Below, piece by piece: positions 9,332 to 51,019 of a DNA stretch of 64,000 nt. This stretch comes from a virus, in IMG/VR virus record IMGVR_UViG_3300021420_000017, positions 32,001-96,000 of that record; one strand, given 5' to 3'. The notes under the pieces are model-generated. The model worked only from the letters and a program-made list of their open reading frames with translations, searched no databases and was not told the DNA's origin. The position numbers were made by a program, and so were the translations under genes. Positions within the stretch are counted from its first letter, which is position 1, and every line of letters begins with the position of its first letter.

Positions 9332-9993
9332 TGTACCCGGCGGCGCAGACCTATTGGCTGGAACCCACCAAGACGGTCGCAGTGGGTCTGCGCCGCTACA
9401 CATCCCCTCCGTGGGCGACCGGCGAGCCCCGAGACTGTGAGCACGGTTGGCATGACGTCCTGGTCTATATCGGCCGAGATGAGGCCCAGTTCAACGAGCA
9501 TGGCTATCGCGACTCCTGGTCGGAGGCCCCGCAACATGATGATCCCCGCTGGCCAACCCGGTGCGAGCGCTGTGACTATGTCTTTACTGCTGAGGACACC
9601 TGGCAGCCGTGGTCTGAACTGATCTACCAGCAGCCCGGCACGGGCAAGGAGTACGTCATCCATTCGAACCCGGCGTGCTCAGCGCAAGCGGTGGGCGCTC
9701 CACAGGCTGCTCCAGGGGCCTGTTATGACGCCTGGTGGTATCACCGCAAGGGCCCGGATGGGATCTCGCTCGCGGTTGTCTTGCCGAATCAGAATGTCTG
9801 GCTGGTTGACTCCGAGGCCAACAACTGCACGCGCAAGGGTGAGTCACACTATTGCTGGATCCGCAAGGGCGACCCGAAGGCGGGCACGGTGACCGTGGGC
9901 AAGGACGGCAATACGTGCGCGGCCGGAGCGGGATCGATTCAATCAGGGGAATACCACGGGTTTTTGCAGAATGGTGTACTTACGGCCGGATAG
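9331..9993 (+). CDS. Cys/His-rich hypothetical protein (220 aa)
   Basis: TGATG coupling; CxxC and C-terminal YHGFLQNGVL. Confidence 0.75.
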   Translation: MYPAAQTYWLEPTKTVAVGLRRYTSPPWATGEPRDCEHGWHDVLVYIGRDEAQFNEHGYRDSWSEAPQHDDPRWPTRCERCDYVFTAEDTWQPWSELIYQQPGTGKEYVIHSNPACSAQAVGAPQAAPGACYDAWWYHRKGPDGISLAVVLPNQNVWLVDSEANNCTRKGESHYCWIRKGDPKAGTVTVGKDGNTCAAGAGSIQSGEYHGFLQNGVLTAG

Positions 9994-10033
9994 CAACAGC
10001 CCACGCCGGGAGCCATCTCGACGTGGGCTGTTG
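9994..10033. terminator. Hairpin between convergent transcription units
   Basis: CAACAGCCCACG / CGTGGGCTGTTG 12-bp stem plus inner stem. Confidence 0.7.
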
Positions 10034-10058
10034 GTCTGTGGAGTCTCGGTGTTTGAGA

Positions 10059-26631: not shown

Positions 26632-26819
26632 TCGTTCACTTCCACGGAGGCCCACTGAGCGGGAAAGAGATGGATATCGAACGACCGACTAGTCCGATCC
26701 TTATTCTGCGACCGGACTGGGTTCCTAGCATGGACTGGCGCCAGCACTACCATCCCGGCTCTTACCGCCGGGATCCCGATAGTGCTGGCGGGCGCTGCTA
26801 CGACTGGAGAGAACGCTGA
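26625..26819 (+). CDS. Small FxGGPxxG-motif hypothetical protein
   Basis: FHGGPLSG; similar motif in the ORF ending at 39367. Confidence 0.55.
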   Translation: MVIVHFHGGPLSGKEMDIERPTSPILILRPDWVPSMDWRQHYHPGSYRRDPDSAGGRCYDWRER

Positions 26820-45779: not shown

Positions 45780-46568
45780 GTGACCTCCCTGTCCTACCAA
45801 GAGCGGCTACTGATCGATAAGATCGCTGAGGGAATCTCCTCGCTCCTGAACTCCCCGCACGCCGAGCGTGAGTCTCTACGTGTACTTCACCGAAAAGTAG
45901 ATCGACTACTCCACCCCATCATCATTCGTATTCGGGTCGGCCTTGTCCGGGGTCAAGATGGCTCCCTGCCGACCACTCAGCCAGAAGGGCCCACAATGCA
46001 GCTCACCGACACCCAGCAGGTCGACTACACCATCGAGGTCGATGACACCAAGGGGTATGCGGTTCCCGGCGCCGCGCTCGCAGCCTCGGTGGACAACCCC
46101 GCCGTGGCGACTGTCACCCAGACTGGTTCGACCTTCACCGTCGTCGCTGGTCAGCCTGGCAGTGCGGTCGTCACTTTCACCGTCGGGGGACTGACCGCCA
46201 CCGAGGCGATCGACGTCGTCGCCGGTGGAGTGGCCACCATCAAGGTGACTGCTGGCACTCCGGTGGATCAGCCCGTTGCCGTTCCGGTCGTTCCCGCCGC
46301 GACCGCCGTGGTTGCCTCACCCGTCACTCCGCCCGAGCCGGTCGTGTCCTCGGATCTCACAGCGACCTCGCCGGTTCCGACGCCTTCCATTGCCACTCCG
46401 GTAGATCCCACTGTGACCTCGCCGACGGCAGTCCCGGCTACGGATGCCACTCCCCCGGCAGCTCCGGTCGTCGCTCCCGATCCGGTAGATGTTCCTGCTC
46501 CGGTTGTTCCGGCTTCTGTTATCGCGGCCGACCCCACCGTGGCTCCGCAGACAGACACCACGGCCTAA
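45780..46568 (+). CDS. Ig-like-domain protein with a Pro/Thr/Val/Ala-rich tail (alternative start at ATG 45996)
   Basis: SVDNPAVATV....TFTVVAGQPGSAVVTFT (Big_2-like). Confidence 0.75.
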   Translation: MTSLSYQERLLIDKIAEGISSLLNSPHAERESLRVLHRKVDRLLHPIIIRIRVGLVRGQDGSLPTTQPEGPTMQLTDTQQVDYTIEVDDTKGYAVPGAALAASVDNPAVATVTQTGSTFTVVAGQPGSAVVTFTVGGLTATEAIDVVAGGVATIKVTAGTPVDQPVAVPVVPAATAVVASPVTPPEPVVSSDLTATSPVPTPSIATPVDPTVTSPTAVPATDATPPAAPVVAPDPVDVPAPVVPASVIAADPTVAPQTDTTA

Positions 46569-46616
46569 CCCCTGGACCCCCGGCGGGTGCTGGCCCCCGC
46601 TTCGCCAGTCGGGTTA

Positions 46617-46659
46617 GCGAAGCCCCACTCGATTTCGGTCGGGTGGGGCTTCGTGTTTT
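46617..46659 (+). terminator. Intrinsic terminator
   Basis: CGAAGCCCCAC / GTGGGGCTTCG stem plus TTTT. Confidence 0.8.
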
Positions 46660-46898
46660 AAGCGAATGGTGTAAGGTCATCCACGCCTGCTCGTCTCCTC
46701 GTAGCAGCCGCGCCTGTTGTGTTCGGACCCGCGCCTCGTGCAAGACGCCGTCGAAGGTAGAGACACCTCGGCGAATGTCTGGGTCCGAACACTGCAGAAG
46801 TCGCTCAGTTCATGAATGGCAGAAGCCGATCCGAGGACCAGTTACCGGGTCCTCGGATCGGCTTCTGCGTAGGGCACCAGTTCGCAGCCTCGTATCCG

Positions 46899-47276
46899 TC
46901 ACCAATAGTGCCACATGGCGGCTCCTCGTGGGCGGTAGGGTGCGATATCTTCCTCCCCCGTGCGGAGAGCCATCCGAACTCGCTGGCGCTCGGCGCGGTG
47001 CATCCTGTTGGCTTCCCAACGGACCCCCTTGGGCCGCCAGTACCAGTTGCTGTCGTAATAGGCCCGATAGGGCTGCTCATCATCACAGCGGGGCTTGATG
47101 GCCCAGGTGAAGGTATGGCGGAACCGGGGTGAGTACGCGCGTTCCCGGGGCCACCAGGAGCGGTGGTGATTGTTCCGGGGCCGGTAGTCGCACTCGCCAT
47201 GGGTGTGGTCGTGGGACTCGTGACCGTAGCGGTTGAGTTTGACCCACTCGGGGTCGGTCTTGTCGGTGCGGGACAT
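46899..47276 (-). CDS. Basic hypothetical protein (125 aa)
   Basis: MSRTDKTDPEWV; GAAGG SD. Confidence 0.65.
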   Translation of the reverse strand: MSRTDKTDPEWVKLNRYGHESHDHTHGECDYRPRNNHHRSWWPRERAYSPRFRHTFTWAIKPRCDDEQPYRAYYDSNWYWRPKGVRWEANRMHRAERQRVRMALRTGEEDIAPYRPRGAAMWHYW

Positions 47277-47331
47277 CGATGCCTTCCCGCTGACACGGTG
47301 TCAGCTCTATAACGACATCGCGCACCTCCTA

Positions 47332-47583
47332 CTACCAGTCATCGTTGATCTCGCATTGATCCCAGGCCAGGTCGGCCACGTGCTTCTCGCCGTAGGTTTT
47401 GCGCACCAAGTCCTTGGCGAACTCGATCCACTCTTCTTGGTCATCGGTGTAGGGGTGAGTGAACTCGAACTTGCGCTGGGATCCCCGGTACTGCTCCTCG
47501 CCGTCCTGAAGGATCTCCACGGTGTGTCCGCAGCAGCCGGTCTCGCAGCCGTAGCTGTCGTGGTAGACGATCACCTTGGCCAC
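47332..47583 (-). CDS. Hypothetical protein (83 aa)
   Basis: YHDSYGCETGCCGH. Confidence 0.7.
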   Translation of the reverse strand: MAKVIVYHDSYGCETGCCGHTVEILQDGEEQYRGSQRKFEFTHPYTDDQEEWIEFAKDLVRKTYGEKHVADLAWDQCEINDDW

Positions 47584-47655
47584 GTTCGGGCTCCGATCAT
47601 TTCAGGTGGGCAGCCGAGCACAATAACAGATCTTGGTTGGGAGTAGTGAAAGCTC

Positions 47656-47919
47656 TTATTCGGTGCTTGTGGGCTTAGAAACAGGAGTCTCCCCCAGCCG
47701 CTCCAAGAGCTTGATCAGTGAGTCGATCTGGTGCGGCCAGACCGCGAGGGTTCCGGTGCCCATGTTGGATCCACCGACGCGCCAGTAGTGACTCTCCCCG
47801 GCTTCGTCGTATGGGACTGCAGTCGCCCGGATGGTCTCGCTGAAGGCCGGGTCGTCTTCGTCTGGGATTGTGATCTCTACTACCGGGGTCAGATAGGTGA
47901 CGGTCTCAGTTGTAGTCAT
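47656..47919 (-). CDS. Hypothetical protein (87 aa)
   Basis: AAGGAG SD before ATG 47919. Confidence 0.65.
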   Translation of the reverse strand: MTTTETVTYLTPVVEITIPDEDDPAFSETIRATAVPYDEAGESHYWRVGGSNMGTGTLAVWPHQIDSLIKLLERLGETPVSKPTSTE

Positions 47920-48257
47920 AGCGCTCCTTCGATCGGGCAACTGATCAGAATAGCAGAGCTGCGAGGCGAGAGAGTTCTAGCCTATGACTTGGTAGAGCCC
48001 ATGCTGAGCTGCAACGAGTTGGATCGCATCGTGAGACGCAGGGTCACGCAGCGCAAGAGACTCAAGGTCAGATTGAGCATTGCGGTAAGACTTGATGTTG
48101 AGGCCGAACCCAATGATGACTTTGTGCGGTCGCTGGGTGAGCATGATGCCAAACTCGTTGATCCGGACATGACGGCTGTGCCGGTCTGAACGTGGGCATT
48201 CGGGAAACGATTTGCACATCAGCGCTCTTCCGCTCTGTTCTGCGTTGATGATTGGTT

Positions 48258-48399
48258 GCGCTCCAGGAGTCCGACAGAGTTCCCCGCCCCTGGGGAAGGT
48301 TCCATAGGGGCTCGGTCCTCGCAGCAAGGACATCGGAGTTGCGCAACTCCGGAGTCATGACCGAGCTGGAGCACCTCGGTCATCCGCAGAACCCTCTGT
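48258..48399 (-). ncRNA. Highly structured RNA domain 3' of the tRNA-like gene, with a predicted pseudoknot
   Basis: Six nested stems plus 9-nt loop-to-tail complementarity. Confidence 0.55.
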
Positions 48400-48407
48400 G
48401 TTTCTCG

Positions 48408-48479
48408 TCGGGGTGACTGGATTCGAACCAGTGACTTTCCGGTTCACGCCGGATGCTCTGTCCGCTGAGCTACGCCCCA
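48408..48479 (-). tRNA. Atypical tRNA (6-nt anticodon loop CGUGAA; His-like GUG); no encoded CCA
   Basis: D arm GCTC/GAGC; anticodon stem TCCGG/CCGGA; T arm ACTGG-TTCGAAT-CCAGT; acceptor stem with U1-G72 and a C6-A67 mismatch. Confidence 0.75.
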
Positions 48480-48497
48480 GTGTTGTGATGCAGGGCG

Positions 48498-48525
48498 ATA
48501 CTAGCAGCCATCGTGATCGTTTCAA
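48498..48525 (-). promoter_or_regulatory. SigA-like promoter for the tRNA/ncRNA unit
   Basis: TTGAAA, 16-bp spacer, TAGTAT. Confidence 0.7.
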
Positions 48526-48579
48526 ACGGTTGCTAGGGTGCTCGTTGCACCCCGACCGCAACTGACCCCTGGAGATCGT

Positions 48580-48861
48580 ATGTCTGAGAGCACTGTCGTG
48601 TCGCAACCGGAACGCGCTGGACGCGAGGGCGATAGTCAAGGGTTGCCCACTCCGAACAACGAGATCGATACGCAGTCTATAGCGATACGGTTGATCTCGG
48701 ATCGACGTGATATTGGAATTAAGCGATATGGAACTGCGCTGCAGCCGAACAATAATCGTGACTCTCTGTGGGATGCGATAGAAGAGTCCTTGGATATGTT
48801 CGTCTATCTGCTTAACTACTGGCGCGAACAGAATCCGGGAGCCTCGATACCAGGACTCTGA
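48580..48861 (+). CDS. All-alpha NTP-pyrophosphatase-like (MazG-type) small protein
   Basis: RRDIGIKRYGTALQPNN.RDSL.DAIEESLDMFVYL. Confidence 0.6.
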   Translation: MSESTVVSQPERAGREGDSQGLPTPNNEIDTQSIAIRLISDRRDIGIKRYGTALQPNNNRDSLWDAIEESLDMFVYLLNYWREQNPGASIPGL

Positions 48862-48927
48862 AGCCGGTATCTCTGAGGCCATCAGCGAATCCGCCGCTGT
48901 TCATGCCCGAGGGTGAATCCGCCCACC

Positions 48928-48939
48928 TGAAGTAGTGAG
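48928..48939 (+). promoter_or_regulatory. Putative late-promoter motif
   Basis: CACCTGAAGTAGTGA, 15 bp identical to the copy at 60845-60859. Confidence 0.6.
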
Positions 48940-48968
48940 GGCAAGTTTTCCTACGAAAGGTGTGTGCG

Positions 48969-50732
48969 GTGGCGGGACGCGACGTGCACGAGGTCGTACG
49001 CCAGTACGAGCATGCGCCCAGTCAGGAACCGATGCATGGCCAACTAGGCCAGATCCGGCGAGCCCCCTCCACCGATCAGAAGAAGACACGGCGCGAGCTG
49101 CAACGCAAGGCCGACCTGGAGGACTCCATCGTGACCCAGCCACAGTCCCGCACGGCGGCTATCGCCGATCTGCTGGGCCGAGCCAGCGTGGCTCGCACTC
49201 AGCCCGAGCGAGAGAGCCTGATGCTGCAGGTGGAGAGCCTGCGCACTGAGGCCGCCGCCGAGCACGAGGCCGAGTACGGCTTTCAGGTCGGAGCGGCGAA
49301 GGTCCGTGACACCCTGGTGCCCGGTCATGGCTACGAGCGGATGAGCGAAGAGACAGACTGGATCATCGGTCTGACGTCGACCGCCAGCCTCACCGAGGCC
49401 AGCCAGGAGATGGTGGCTCAGGCCACGATGTGGTTCGACCGGGTGCCGGTCATGGTCAAGGAGTATCCCGAGGAGTTCGGCGAGCAGGCCCGCAACATGG
49501 GCCGCCGCCTGGCTGGTCAGTTCGGCGAGCAGGCTGAGGCCGCTGAGCAGGCCTTCCTCACCGAGGCCGGGCGCCTGCACACCCAGGCAGTGCGCAACGG
49601 GGCGTTCGCCATCGCAAAGGAGGCTGAGCTGGACGCCGCCCTCGGTGGTTTCTCCTACGACGCGAACAGCGAACAGATCACTGACCCCACGACCCCCAAG
49701 CGCAGTCATGCCGCGCTCCTGGCGGACATGATGCTGCAGGCCCAGGCCGCCAGCTCGCTGCCCCAGGTGGCCGACGGCACCAACCCGGCCCCTGGGGACA
49801 CCTTCTCCACCCTCAATGGCGGGGGCGGCGTGCCTCCTGAGGCGACCGACTCCAACCGGGCACCCGCCTTGCAGGAGATCCAGAACTACACCGGCTGGGA
49901 CGGTTCCTCGGTCGTGCCGCCCAATGACAACCACGCAGACATCGACAATCACGCTGGCGGCCCCGTCAATGCCGCTAGTCCCCAGCCCGGCTTCCCGGTC
50001 GGCGCTTCACTGCAGCACACCGTTCACAAGGAGAGTCACATGGCCCAGGTGCACGTCGCGTGCCCGACCTGCGGCGGCCACGGCAAGGTGGCTACCCGCG
50101 CGCACGATCCCAAGACGGCCTACTCGGGCCTGCCTCAGATCGATCAGATCGTCAACGCCGATGACAGCCCCGGGGAGAGCCCATTCCCGGAGCAGGTCGC
50201 TTTCCCGGTGGTCTGGAACCCGAATACAGTGCCCGGCACTATCAACCAGGCCGAGCAGCAGATCGCCCAGCGCAACCAGCAGTCCCCGATTGCCTCCGGC
50301 GGGACGGGTCGCCCCTCGTCCGCCACGTCGAGTCGGCATGAGGCCAACGGCCGGGACAACTCCGGCTGGATCGGCGACATGGGCGCCAAGGGAACCGACT
50401 ACCCGGGCTATTCGACCCCCAACTACGGTGGACCTGGCAACCTCGGCCAGCCGGACCCGGTCTATGGCGAGGGCGGCGACAACGGCAACCAGCCGCTCAA
50501 GCCCTACGGTGCGCAGGAGGCCAACGACTACACGAATAACCCGGGCCAGAACTGGCAGCCTGGCCAACCGACGGCCGATGACCAGGCCTCCTCGACCGTG
50601 ACCCCCGCCGTCAACACAGGCGCGGGCATGACGGGTACCGCGAGTCGCAATCCCTACATCGCCGCCGCGCAGCAGGAGATCTTGCGTCAGCAGTCCATCA
50701 TCCGCGCCCAGATGGCTTCGCAGGGTCGCTGA
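48969..50732 (+). CDS. Probable virion head-associated protein (~587 aa)
   Basis: First gene of the head block; low-complexity G/N/P/Q regions; CPTCGGHG. Confidence 0.75.
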   Translation: MAGRDVHEVVRQYEHAPSQEPMHGQLGQIRRAPSTDQKKTRRELQRKADLEDSIVTQPQSRTAAIADLLGRASVARTQPERESLMLQVESLRTEAAAEHEAEYGFQVGAAKVRDTLVPGHGYERMSEETDWIIGLTSTASLTEASQEMVAQATMWFDRVPVMVKEYPEEFGEQARNMGRRLAGQFGEQAEAAEQAFLTEAGRLHTQAVRNGAFAIAKEAELDAALGGFSYDANSEQITDPTTPKRSHAALLADMMLQAQAASSLPQVADGTNPAPGDTFSTLNGGGGVPPEATDSNRAPALQEIQNYTGWDGSSVVPPNDNHADIDNHAGGPVNAASPQPGFPVGASLQHTVHKESHMAQVHVACPTCGGHGKVATRAHDPKTAYSGLPQIDQIVNADDSPGESPFPEQVAFPVVWNPNTVPGTINQAEQQIAQRNQQSPIASGGTGRPSSATSSRHEANGRDNSGWIGDMGAKGTDYPGYSTPNYGGPGNLGQPDPVYGEGGDNGNQPLKPYGAQEANDYTNNPGQNWQPGQPTADDQASSTVTPAVNTGAGMTGTASRNPYIAAAQQEILRQQSIIRAQMASQGR

Positions 50733-50737
50733 CCGTA

Positions 50738-51019
50738 GTGAACTTCCGGCTGGCAGTCAAAAGGATCGAAGCCGATCTGGACCCGGATCGTGCAACATCT
50801 GTGCCATGGCCGACAAATAGGCCAGTGGTGCATCAGCCGTTGCCCAGCACGGATGGTCTCGACCCGGCTGCTCCCGGTGGGCCCTCTCCCTTCAACTCGG
50901 GGGCGGGGCCCTACGGGGAGCCGGTGGCAACAGATCCTCTGCGAGATACCCCTATCGCCCAGGGTATGCCGATTCCTCACAAATTGGGCCCGGACCTTGA
51001 CCAAACGACACTTCAGTAG
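50738..51019 (+). CDS. Pro-rich hypothetical protein (93 aa)
   Basis: In head operon. Confidence 0.6.
   Translation: MNFRLAVKRIEADLDPDRATSVPWPTNRPVVHQPLPSTDGLDPAAPGGPSPFNSGAGPYGEPVATDPLRDTPIAQGMPIPHKLGPDLDQTTLQ

Follow-up and report, generated by a model that had tools for sequence, protein, structure and literature searches.

A predicted 157-nt RNA fold behind a non-decoding tRNA-like gene of a soil phage, tentatively read as the structured leader of a leftward operon

What is encoded, if anything, by the approximately 180 non-coding bases that lie directly behind the only tRNA-type gene of a densely coding phage genome? This question is raised by a soil phage represented by IMG/VR virus record IMGVR_UViG_3300021420_000017 (146,650 bp, 60% G+C, estimated completeness 94%, coding density 91%), of which bases 32001-96000 were analysed here as a single window of 64,000 nt; positions refer to this window, unless genome positions are specified. 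The tRNA-like gene and the stretch behind it occupy a 360-nt gap between divergent genes (Table 1). A sequence-only reading of this DNA had proposed a promoter, an aberrant tRNA and, behind it, a compact multi-stem RNA with a 9-bp pseudoknot, representing an undescribed tRNA-associated ncRNA or ribozyme. In the present analysis, the stretch is tentatively interpreted, with a probability of roughly 40%, as the structured leader of a leftward operon that is driven by a host-type promoter and comprises the tRNA-like gene, the folded leader, four small genes and a terminator. A fold that arose fortuitously in a non-coding spacer was judged to be nearly as likely.

Table 1. Features of the tRNA-like gene locus and of the predicted RNA structures, with window positions
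Feature	Position	Strand	Remarks
Sigma70-like promoter candidate	48498-48525	-	TTGAAA (-35), 16-nt spacer, TG-extended TAGTAT (-10); 9/12 matches
tRNA-like gene	48408-48479	-	Cloverleaf; ARAGORN 'tRNA-?(His|Ser)(tg)'; Rfam RF00005, 49.6 bits
Spacer, 15 nt	48393-48407	-	Single-stranded in nested model; contains ACAGAG of the earlier closing stem
Predicted folded domain, 157 nt	48236-48392	-	MFE -75.2 kcal/mol
P1, 13 bp, AA bulge	48392-48380 / 48251-48237	-	Pair probability 0.97-1.00
P2, 9 bp (the earlier 'pseudoknot' helix)	48374-48366 / 48266-48258	-	Pair probability 0.97-1.00
P3, 8 bp, one bulge	48362-48354 / 48275-48268	-	Pair probability 0.97-1.00
Cap, three hairpins	48351-48334 (palindrome), 48331-48315, 48311-48286	-	Predicted fold
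Earlier closing stem, ACAGAG/CTCTGT	48399-48394 / 48279-48274	-	Sequence check
Stem GGTTC/GAACC	48393-48389 / 48302-48298	-	Sequence check
Local hairpin H1, ATGACCGAG / CTCGGTCAT	48383-48375 / 48357-48365 (span 48357-48383)	-	9 bp, 9-nt loop
16-bp palindrome	48350-48335	-	Perfect
Loop-tail helix, GTGCUCCAG with CTGGAGCGC	48374-48366 / 48266-48258	-	8 Watson-Crick pairs and 1 G-U
Plus-strand gene, 93 aa	start 48580	+	PHROG hits
First downstream ORF (ORF80), 80 aa, ORFan	47977-48219	-	GGAAGAG 5 nt before ATG; reality as a gene uncertain
Small leftward genes (n=3)	47656-47919, 47332-47583, 46899-47276	-	Coding scores
21-bp perfect-stem hairpin	46818-46868	.	-47 kcal/mol; likely terminator of the leftward unit

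The tRNA-like gene was recognised as a cloverleaf (49.6 bits in Rfam against a threshold of 29), and both ARAGORN and Rfam confirmed that it is aberrant. Its anticodon loop (CGUGAA) comprises 6 nt, for which ARAGORN reported a two-base 'anticodon', and a 7-nt loop with U33 and a readable anticodon is absent. The gene furthermore exhibits a U1-G72 wobble pair, a C6xA67 mismatch and a discriminator A (A48408) without an encoded CCA, and a CCA-adding enzyme was not found in the phage. Many tRNA-Pro genes in IMG/VR have exactly the same T arm and 3' acceptor strand, with a tRNA-Pro(CGG) representing the best full-length match (79% identity). The 5' strand of the tRNA-like gene is two transitions away from the canonical CGGGGTG. 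ARAGORN found no tmRNA at this locus, and this candidate was rejected.

Exact copies of the 22-nt T-arm/acceptor end (48408-48429) were identified in 69 IMG/VR contigs (loci L149-L217), mostly within tRNA-Pro genes, and in many cases just the 3' part of the gene is present, at the end of a contig or prophage, as is typical of att sites in tRNA-Pro. An attP role for the gene studied here is unlikely, as the genome does not encode a tyrosine integrase. Upstream of the -35 box, the sequence GTCGGGGTG (48548-48556) represents a perfect 9-nt complement of the acceptor 3' end (48407-48415) and also equals the canonical tRNA-Pro 5' strand (CGGGGTG); this match may be meaningless, since chance alone would give ~0.4 such 9-mers in the 471-nt region.

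The proposed TTGAAA-16-TAGTAT promoter was retrieved as a promoter-like site with an additional TG extension, located 19 nt upstream of the tRNA-like gene, from which transcription would be expected to start near position 48491. Among 47 comparable sigma70-like hits across the genome (146.6 kb), this is the only site that is both TG-extended and intergenic. Elsewhere in the window, the motif TGAAGTAGTGA was found in three exact copies (plus-strand positions 2255, 48928 and 60849; 0.36 expected), each directly before a gene block. This late-type motif is missing from the tRNA gap, its nearest copy being that at 48928, ahead of the head genes, which suggests that the leftward unit uses a different promoter. 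The presence of a unique host-type site combined with the lack of the late-type motif favours the interpretation as a leader.

To assess coding potential, a codon-usage score trained on the long genes of the same genome was applied. Each of the six frames of region 48220-48400 scored negatively, with values of -0.11 to -0.39 bits per codon versus +0.30 (sd 0.17) for real genes, by which a coding function was rejected; this result is in favour of a leader. The same score backed the three minus-strand ORFs further downstream (47656-47919, 47332-47583 and 46899-47276). The 83-aa, Cys/His-rich product of the second of these has 36 homologues with the invariant motif VYH..YGC..GCCGH and is a conserved phage protein. 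The reality of these downstream genes likewise argues for a leader. Conversely, ORF80, whose ATG is positioned 17 nt past the end of the folded domain, weakens this reading as an ORFan of doubtful reality: its sole match among 1.84 billion representatives was itself, called from residue 39 of a 118-aa frame. The G+C content of the gap (0.59) is also ordinary, being equal to the median of the gaps in this genome, and is a further point against the leader.

The distal end of the leftward unit is marked by the hairpin at 46818-46868, which attained the best SVM z of the genome (-10.6) and is probably a two-way terminator. It is situated in a convergent gap, with a plus-strand gene ending at 46568 and a minus-strand gene ending at 46899, forms part of a 170-nt structured stretch (-101.7 kcal/mol) and represents the strongest predicted structure genome-wide (46707-46917). 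Similar long hairpins without a U tract are present at other gene ends, for example at 26739-26789, 9987-10039 and 50870-50922. No terminator-like site was detected on the minus strand of 48220-48400, and the hairpins of the domain were rejected as intrinsic terminators, as they are not of the canonical type and their stems of at most 9 bp compare with the 20-22-bp perfect stems without a U tract that the phage itself uses. The finding that a phage-type terminator (20-bp perfect hairpin) is absent between the tRNA-like gene and the ORFs, and present after the last gene, is in favour of a leader that is transcribed together with these genes.

The structural elements named in the sequence-only reading were all retrieved. 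Each stem segment occurs once, at the minus-strand position that had been assigned to it; the closing stem begins 8 nt past discriminator A48408, the TTCCCC/GGGGAA stem is present, and the GTCCTT/GAGGAC stem consists of five Watson-Crick pairs and one G-U pair. As an overall structure, the earlier nested fold was not the best one. It is predicted to be less stable (-48.9 kcal/mol) than the MFE structure over 48406-48250 (-66.3 kcal/mol), and it misses a predicted 13-bp long-range helix beyond its 3' end, which extends the better model by a further 22 nt.

Folding of 48491-48200 showed this additional helix, P1, to be formed by GUUCUGCGGAUGA (48392-48380) and UCAUC-AA-CGCAGAAC (48251-48237). 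With P1 included, the loop-tail helix that had been taken for a pseudoknot becomes a plain nested helix (P2). The nested fold contains 53 pairs, four of which are G-U, its centroid is near-identical to the MFE structure, and in folding of the full transcript the cloverleaf and the domain were predicted to fold independently. Hairpin H1 is dissolved in this model (probability 0.01-0.03), being incompatible with P1b and P3, while its loop provides the 5' strand of P2. When H1 was forced and combined with the pseudoknot duplex, ~-81.6 kcal/mol was obtained versus -75.2 kcal/mol for the nested fold, a value that excludes the pseudoknot penalty and the strain of a fully paired 9-nt loop. The calculated energies are unable to choose between the nested and the H1-plus-pseudoknot models, which have the 9-bp helix in common. 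The predicted domain is probably nested and longer than had been proposed, and a pseudoknot is not needed.

The pseudoknot was further evaluated across 94 perfect hairpins of at least 8 bp identified genome-wide, for each of which the longest helix that the loop can form with either 150-nt flank was recorded and compared with that obtained after shuffling of the flanks. The loop-tail helix (9 bp) was the longest among the 94 hairpins. Shuffled flanks yielded 0.58 helices of at least 9 bp per genome, with at least one such helix in 46% of shuffles, and the pseudoknot taken alone consequently provides no evidence. The two strands of the helix are present as originally described; its length is at chance level, and it is an ordinary nested helix in the better fold.

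In terms of thermodynamic significance, the domain attained a z of -3.59 (0/200 shuffles equally good) and an SVM z of -4.76. A scan with RNALfold and SVM z-scores placed it at approximately rank 25 among distinct local structures of at least 120 nt, with several better ones inside genes, and in 150-nt windows, which are too short to hold the whole domain, it ranked 280/9768. The plus strand folds nearly as well as the minus strand (z -2.98), the four G-U pairs conferring a slight preference for the latter. A well-defined fold, independent of the cloverleaf and with G-U pairs that slightly favour the transcribed strand, is consistent with a leader; the approximately 25 long local structures that score as well or better, and the nearly equal folding of the plus strand, weaken that interpretation.

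Based on these observations, we infer co-transcription, processing and a function of the fold as follows. Host RNA polymerase would start near 48491 and generate one transcript carrying the tRNA-like module, which is unable to decode, then the domain (48392-48236), the four small genes and the 21-bp hairpin (46868-46818). The cloverleaf may be recognised by host RNase P and, on the 3' side, by a tRNA-processing nuclease such as RNase Z or RNase E, which would excise the tRNA-like module. The domain would then become the 5' end of the mRNA and could contribute to its stability or processing, or serve as the leader for translation of ORF80. During transcription, H1 would be expected to form first, and the long-range helices may subsequently displace it, beginning at P2, the helix common to both models. 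A point against such a leader is that the 15-nt single-stranded spacer would remain 5' of the domain after tRNA processing, indicative of poor 5'-end protection. If the domain is functional, the locus would be a rare phage example of a host-type promoter driving both a tRNA-like module that does not decode and a structured RNA, and would bear on why phages keep odd tRNAs and on the borrowing of tRNA-processing enzymes for other RNAs.

Nearly as likely as this leader is a fortuitous fold, in which the stretch is a G+C-rich non-coding spacer, perhaps left over from a tRNA array or gene that has decayed, with inverted repeats under no selection, and the tRNA-like gene is a decaying pseudogene. 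The chance-level pseudoknot helix, the modest ranks among long local structures (~25th) and 150-nt windows (280/9768) and the roughly equal folding of both strands are all in line with this explanation, as are the three defects of the tRNA-like gene (the 6-nt loop, C6xA67 and U1-G72). A shrunken array would also fit the genomic context of the 83-aa neighbour in other phages: in two of 26 IMG/VR loci encoding this protein (L131:3001-3246 and L134:3001-3213), its gene is found inside same-strand tRNA arrays, with 19 and 12 tRNAs within 6 kb, respectively. However, none of 200 shuffles folded as well as the domain (z -3.59), the ensemble is well defined, and a genome with 91% coding density has retained 180 bases of presumably transcribed, non-coding DNA behind its best host-type promoter candidate. 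Furthermore, a second decayed tRNA was sought on the same strand by Rfam cmscan (E<=10) and relaxed ARAGORN and was rejected, as neither showed a trace of one.

Sequence comparisons, as the source of the covariation that would be decisive, retrieved no relative of the domain. A blastn search against 50,697 phage records matched the tRNA part and not the domain, and megablast of 9 kb gave no match. Hairpin 1 and the aberrant anticodon arm, used as exact patterns, had no hits in IMG/VR. When metagenomes and GTDB genomes were scanned for the anticodon stem closing a loop of 6 or 7 nt, only ordinary tRNA-Met, -Lys, -Asn and similar genes were returned, plus chance hits in coding sequence. A covariance model built from the single sequence (R1) found no match in ~0.9 Mb of loci and three related records, and the 26 loci encoding the 83-aa protein exhibited no similarity in DNA or to the other proteins of the cassette. 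Two related phages (L003 and L004) were identified through the 590-aa neighbour and share the 93-aa, the 590-aa and later genes at 30-79% identity. These two phages have no tRNA, no similar DNA and no such gap, the position of the gap being occupied by coding sequence in one of them, and their only blast match falls by chance within the gene of a conserved protein. Closer relatives of the 590-aa protein (P0002-P0007) were retrieved at 66-49% identity. These genes are also present on a second contig (244.6 kb), whose proteins are identical and for that reason offer no variation. The domain is a single-genome prediction with moderate thermodynamic support. The fact that no relative carries the domain is as expected for a fortuitous fold; for the structured leader, the lack of a homologue, and hence of covariation or conservation, and the lack of the tRNA and gap in L003 and L004 are points against it.

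Comparison with known RNA families bore out the earlier impression that the stretch resembles the core of none of them. With Rfam 15 at gathering thresholds, RF00005 (tRNA) at 48479-48408 was the only match in the whole window, and GOLLD, ROOL, YrlA, HEARO, tmRNA, riboswitches, T-box and small ribozymes did not reach these thresholds. At E<=10, cmscan of 48150-48620 again yielded the tRNA alone, with no HDV-like or other ribozyme model. YrlA and other Y RNA-like RNAs, GOLLD, ROOL and tmRNA are large structured RNAs that often occur in or near phage tRNA regions; the present stretch differs from these in that cmscan matched only tRNA and ARAGORN found no tmRNA. An undescribed tRNA-linked RNA, as proposed in the sequence-only reading, would be consistent with several features of the stretch: it is non-coding, it shares its strand with the tRNA-like gene and follows the genome's best candidate for a host-type promoter, it has no Rfam match, and its fold beats the shuffles. 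Support was withheld on account of the ~25th rank, a pseudoknot that is at chance level and unneeded, the lack of any sign of catalysis and the lack of a homologue for covariation. A new ncRNA or ribozyme, as had been inferred, is neither supported nor excluded.

A free-standing, stable ncRNA of ~160-185 nt, which tRNA-processing enzymes would free from the tRNA-like 'handle' and which would act in trans, is considered unlikely here. Its target, as a decoy or sponge, could for instance be a host factor or a defence nuclease. The order of promoter, cloverleaf and compact domain would suit such an RNA, as would the host-type promoter and the missing late-type motif. Precedents for RNAs linked to tRNAs include the species 1 and species 2 RNAs encoded in the tRNA cluster of phage T4, which are stable, structured non-tRNAs co-transcribed with tRNAs and whose function is still unknown, and the tRNA-miRNA units of MHV68. 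As in T4, a phage would here encode a structured (in our case predicted) RNA together with a tRNA gene; T4 possesses eight working tRNAs, whereas a single defective tRNA-like gene is found here, without a link in sequence or through Rfam. A tRNA-linked spacer with such a function is the 3'ETS-leuZ of E. coli, a short, Hfq-binding sponge RNA with known sRNA partners (10.1101/2021.04.25.441314). In both cases, the segment is positioned directly behind a tRNA and would be made from the promoter of that tRNA, and tRNA-processing nucleases could free it for a role of its own. In contrast to 3'ETS-leuZ, the domain studied here is 157 nt long and highly paired, is followed by ORFs and has no known partner, and its processing is conjectural. 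A free-standing RNA is further disfavoured by the absence of a 3' end signal between the domain and the next ORF, and by the lack of conservation, of an Rfam family and of an identifiable target.

A still less probable elaboration is that of an early transcript in which a decoding-dead, tRNA-Pro-derived cloverleaf serves purely as an RNase P/RNase Z handle, the released new 157-nt RNA (a three-helix rod capped by three hairpins, refolding from a local hairpin via the loop-tail helix) acting in trans; defence nucleases that target tRNAs are an example of what it might decoy. The MHV68 tRNA-miRNA units and MALAT1/mascRNA, which are eukaryotic or herpesviral, offer an analogy, in that a non-aminoacylated tRNA-like module may be the cutting handle for a neighbouring structured RNA. 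To our knowledge, no equivalent of these units has been shown for phages; if true, the phage transcript would be a bacterial-virus counterpart of the herpesviral tRNA-miRNA units.

An element acting at the DNA level, either as operator palindromes for divergent promoters or as a replication or termination site at a change in GC skew, is improbable. The perfect 16-bp palindrome, the other inverted repeats and the equally 'structured' nature of both strands would agree with such an element, as would the peak of whole-genome cumulative GC skew at 78-81 kb, which coincides with the locus. Its motifs, however, are not repeated elsewhere in the genome, iterons and an AT-rich unwinding element are absent, and the palindromes are located downstream of the promoter, within the part that would be transcribed. 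Across the genome, cumulative GC skew rises steadily to this single maximum (window 46000-49000) and is flat to negative beyond it, although plus-strand genes flank it to the left and to the right. The turning point coincides with the leftward cassette.

A new class of self-cleaving ribozyme, with trimming of the tRNA trailer as its role, is highly improbable: its position behind a CCA-less tRNA, as seen for theta ribozymes (PMC10879173), and a possible pseudoknot topology are outweighed by the absence of an Rfam ribozyme family at E<=10, the absence of a P1 that starts no more than 5 nt from the tRNA end and pairs inside a compact fold, the chance level of the pseudoknot and a length of 157 nt, far above the minimal size of an HDV-like motif. 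Theta ribozymes are compact and HDV-like, occur mostly in gut phages of Bacteroidota and cleave within +/-5 nt of the tRNA 3' end, 77% of them within 1 nt; their cleavage site is the first base of P1, which closes within a compact nested double pseudoknot (PMC10879173). At the present locus, no 6-7-bp P1 starting at 48413-48400 with a partner within 60 nt was found, the nearest candidates starting at 48399 or beyond or having their partner 65-135 nt away, and a theta ribozyme was rejected. An HDV-like fold in which the catalytic C at the start of J4/2 could be placed is likewise absent. Like theta ribozymes, the present fold follows a phage tRNA that lacks an encoded CCA; it differs in that it starts 15 nt from the tRNA, has no fitting P1 and has no HDV-like Rfam match. 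At present, the locus is mainly of value as a defined test case for in vitro processing, probing and cleavage, and the architecture suggested earlier is also revised here.

Several additional observations were made on the 83-aa neighbour and on tRNA genes of other contigs. The protein has no informative Pfam or PHROG hits, the Atlas returned viral hypothetical proteins only, and its AlphaFold model (pLDDT 76) gave no significant PDB match. Both of the tRNA arrays that contain the 83-aa gene carry a tRNA with anticodon CUA, labelled 'Pyl' by ARAGORN (L131:2233-2305 and L134:3249-3321), which in L134 adjoins the 83-aa gene. This tRNA is possibly an amber suppressor, hinting at stop-codon suppression or recoding in these two phages. 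Furthermore, a tRNA with a CAU anticodon was observed in two versions of one backbone, with the loops CCCAUAA (C33 for U) and CUCAUAA, in metagenome and genome loci (L015, L036, L052, L068, L069, L099, L100 and L103). In gut-associated contigs, the two versions share one conserved trailer.
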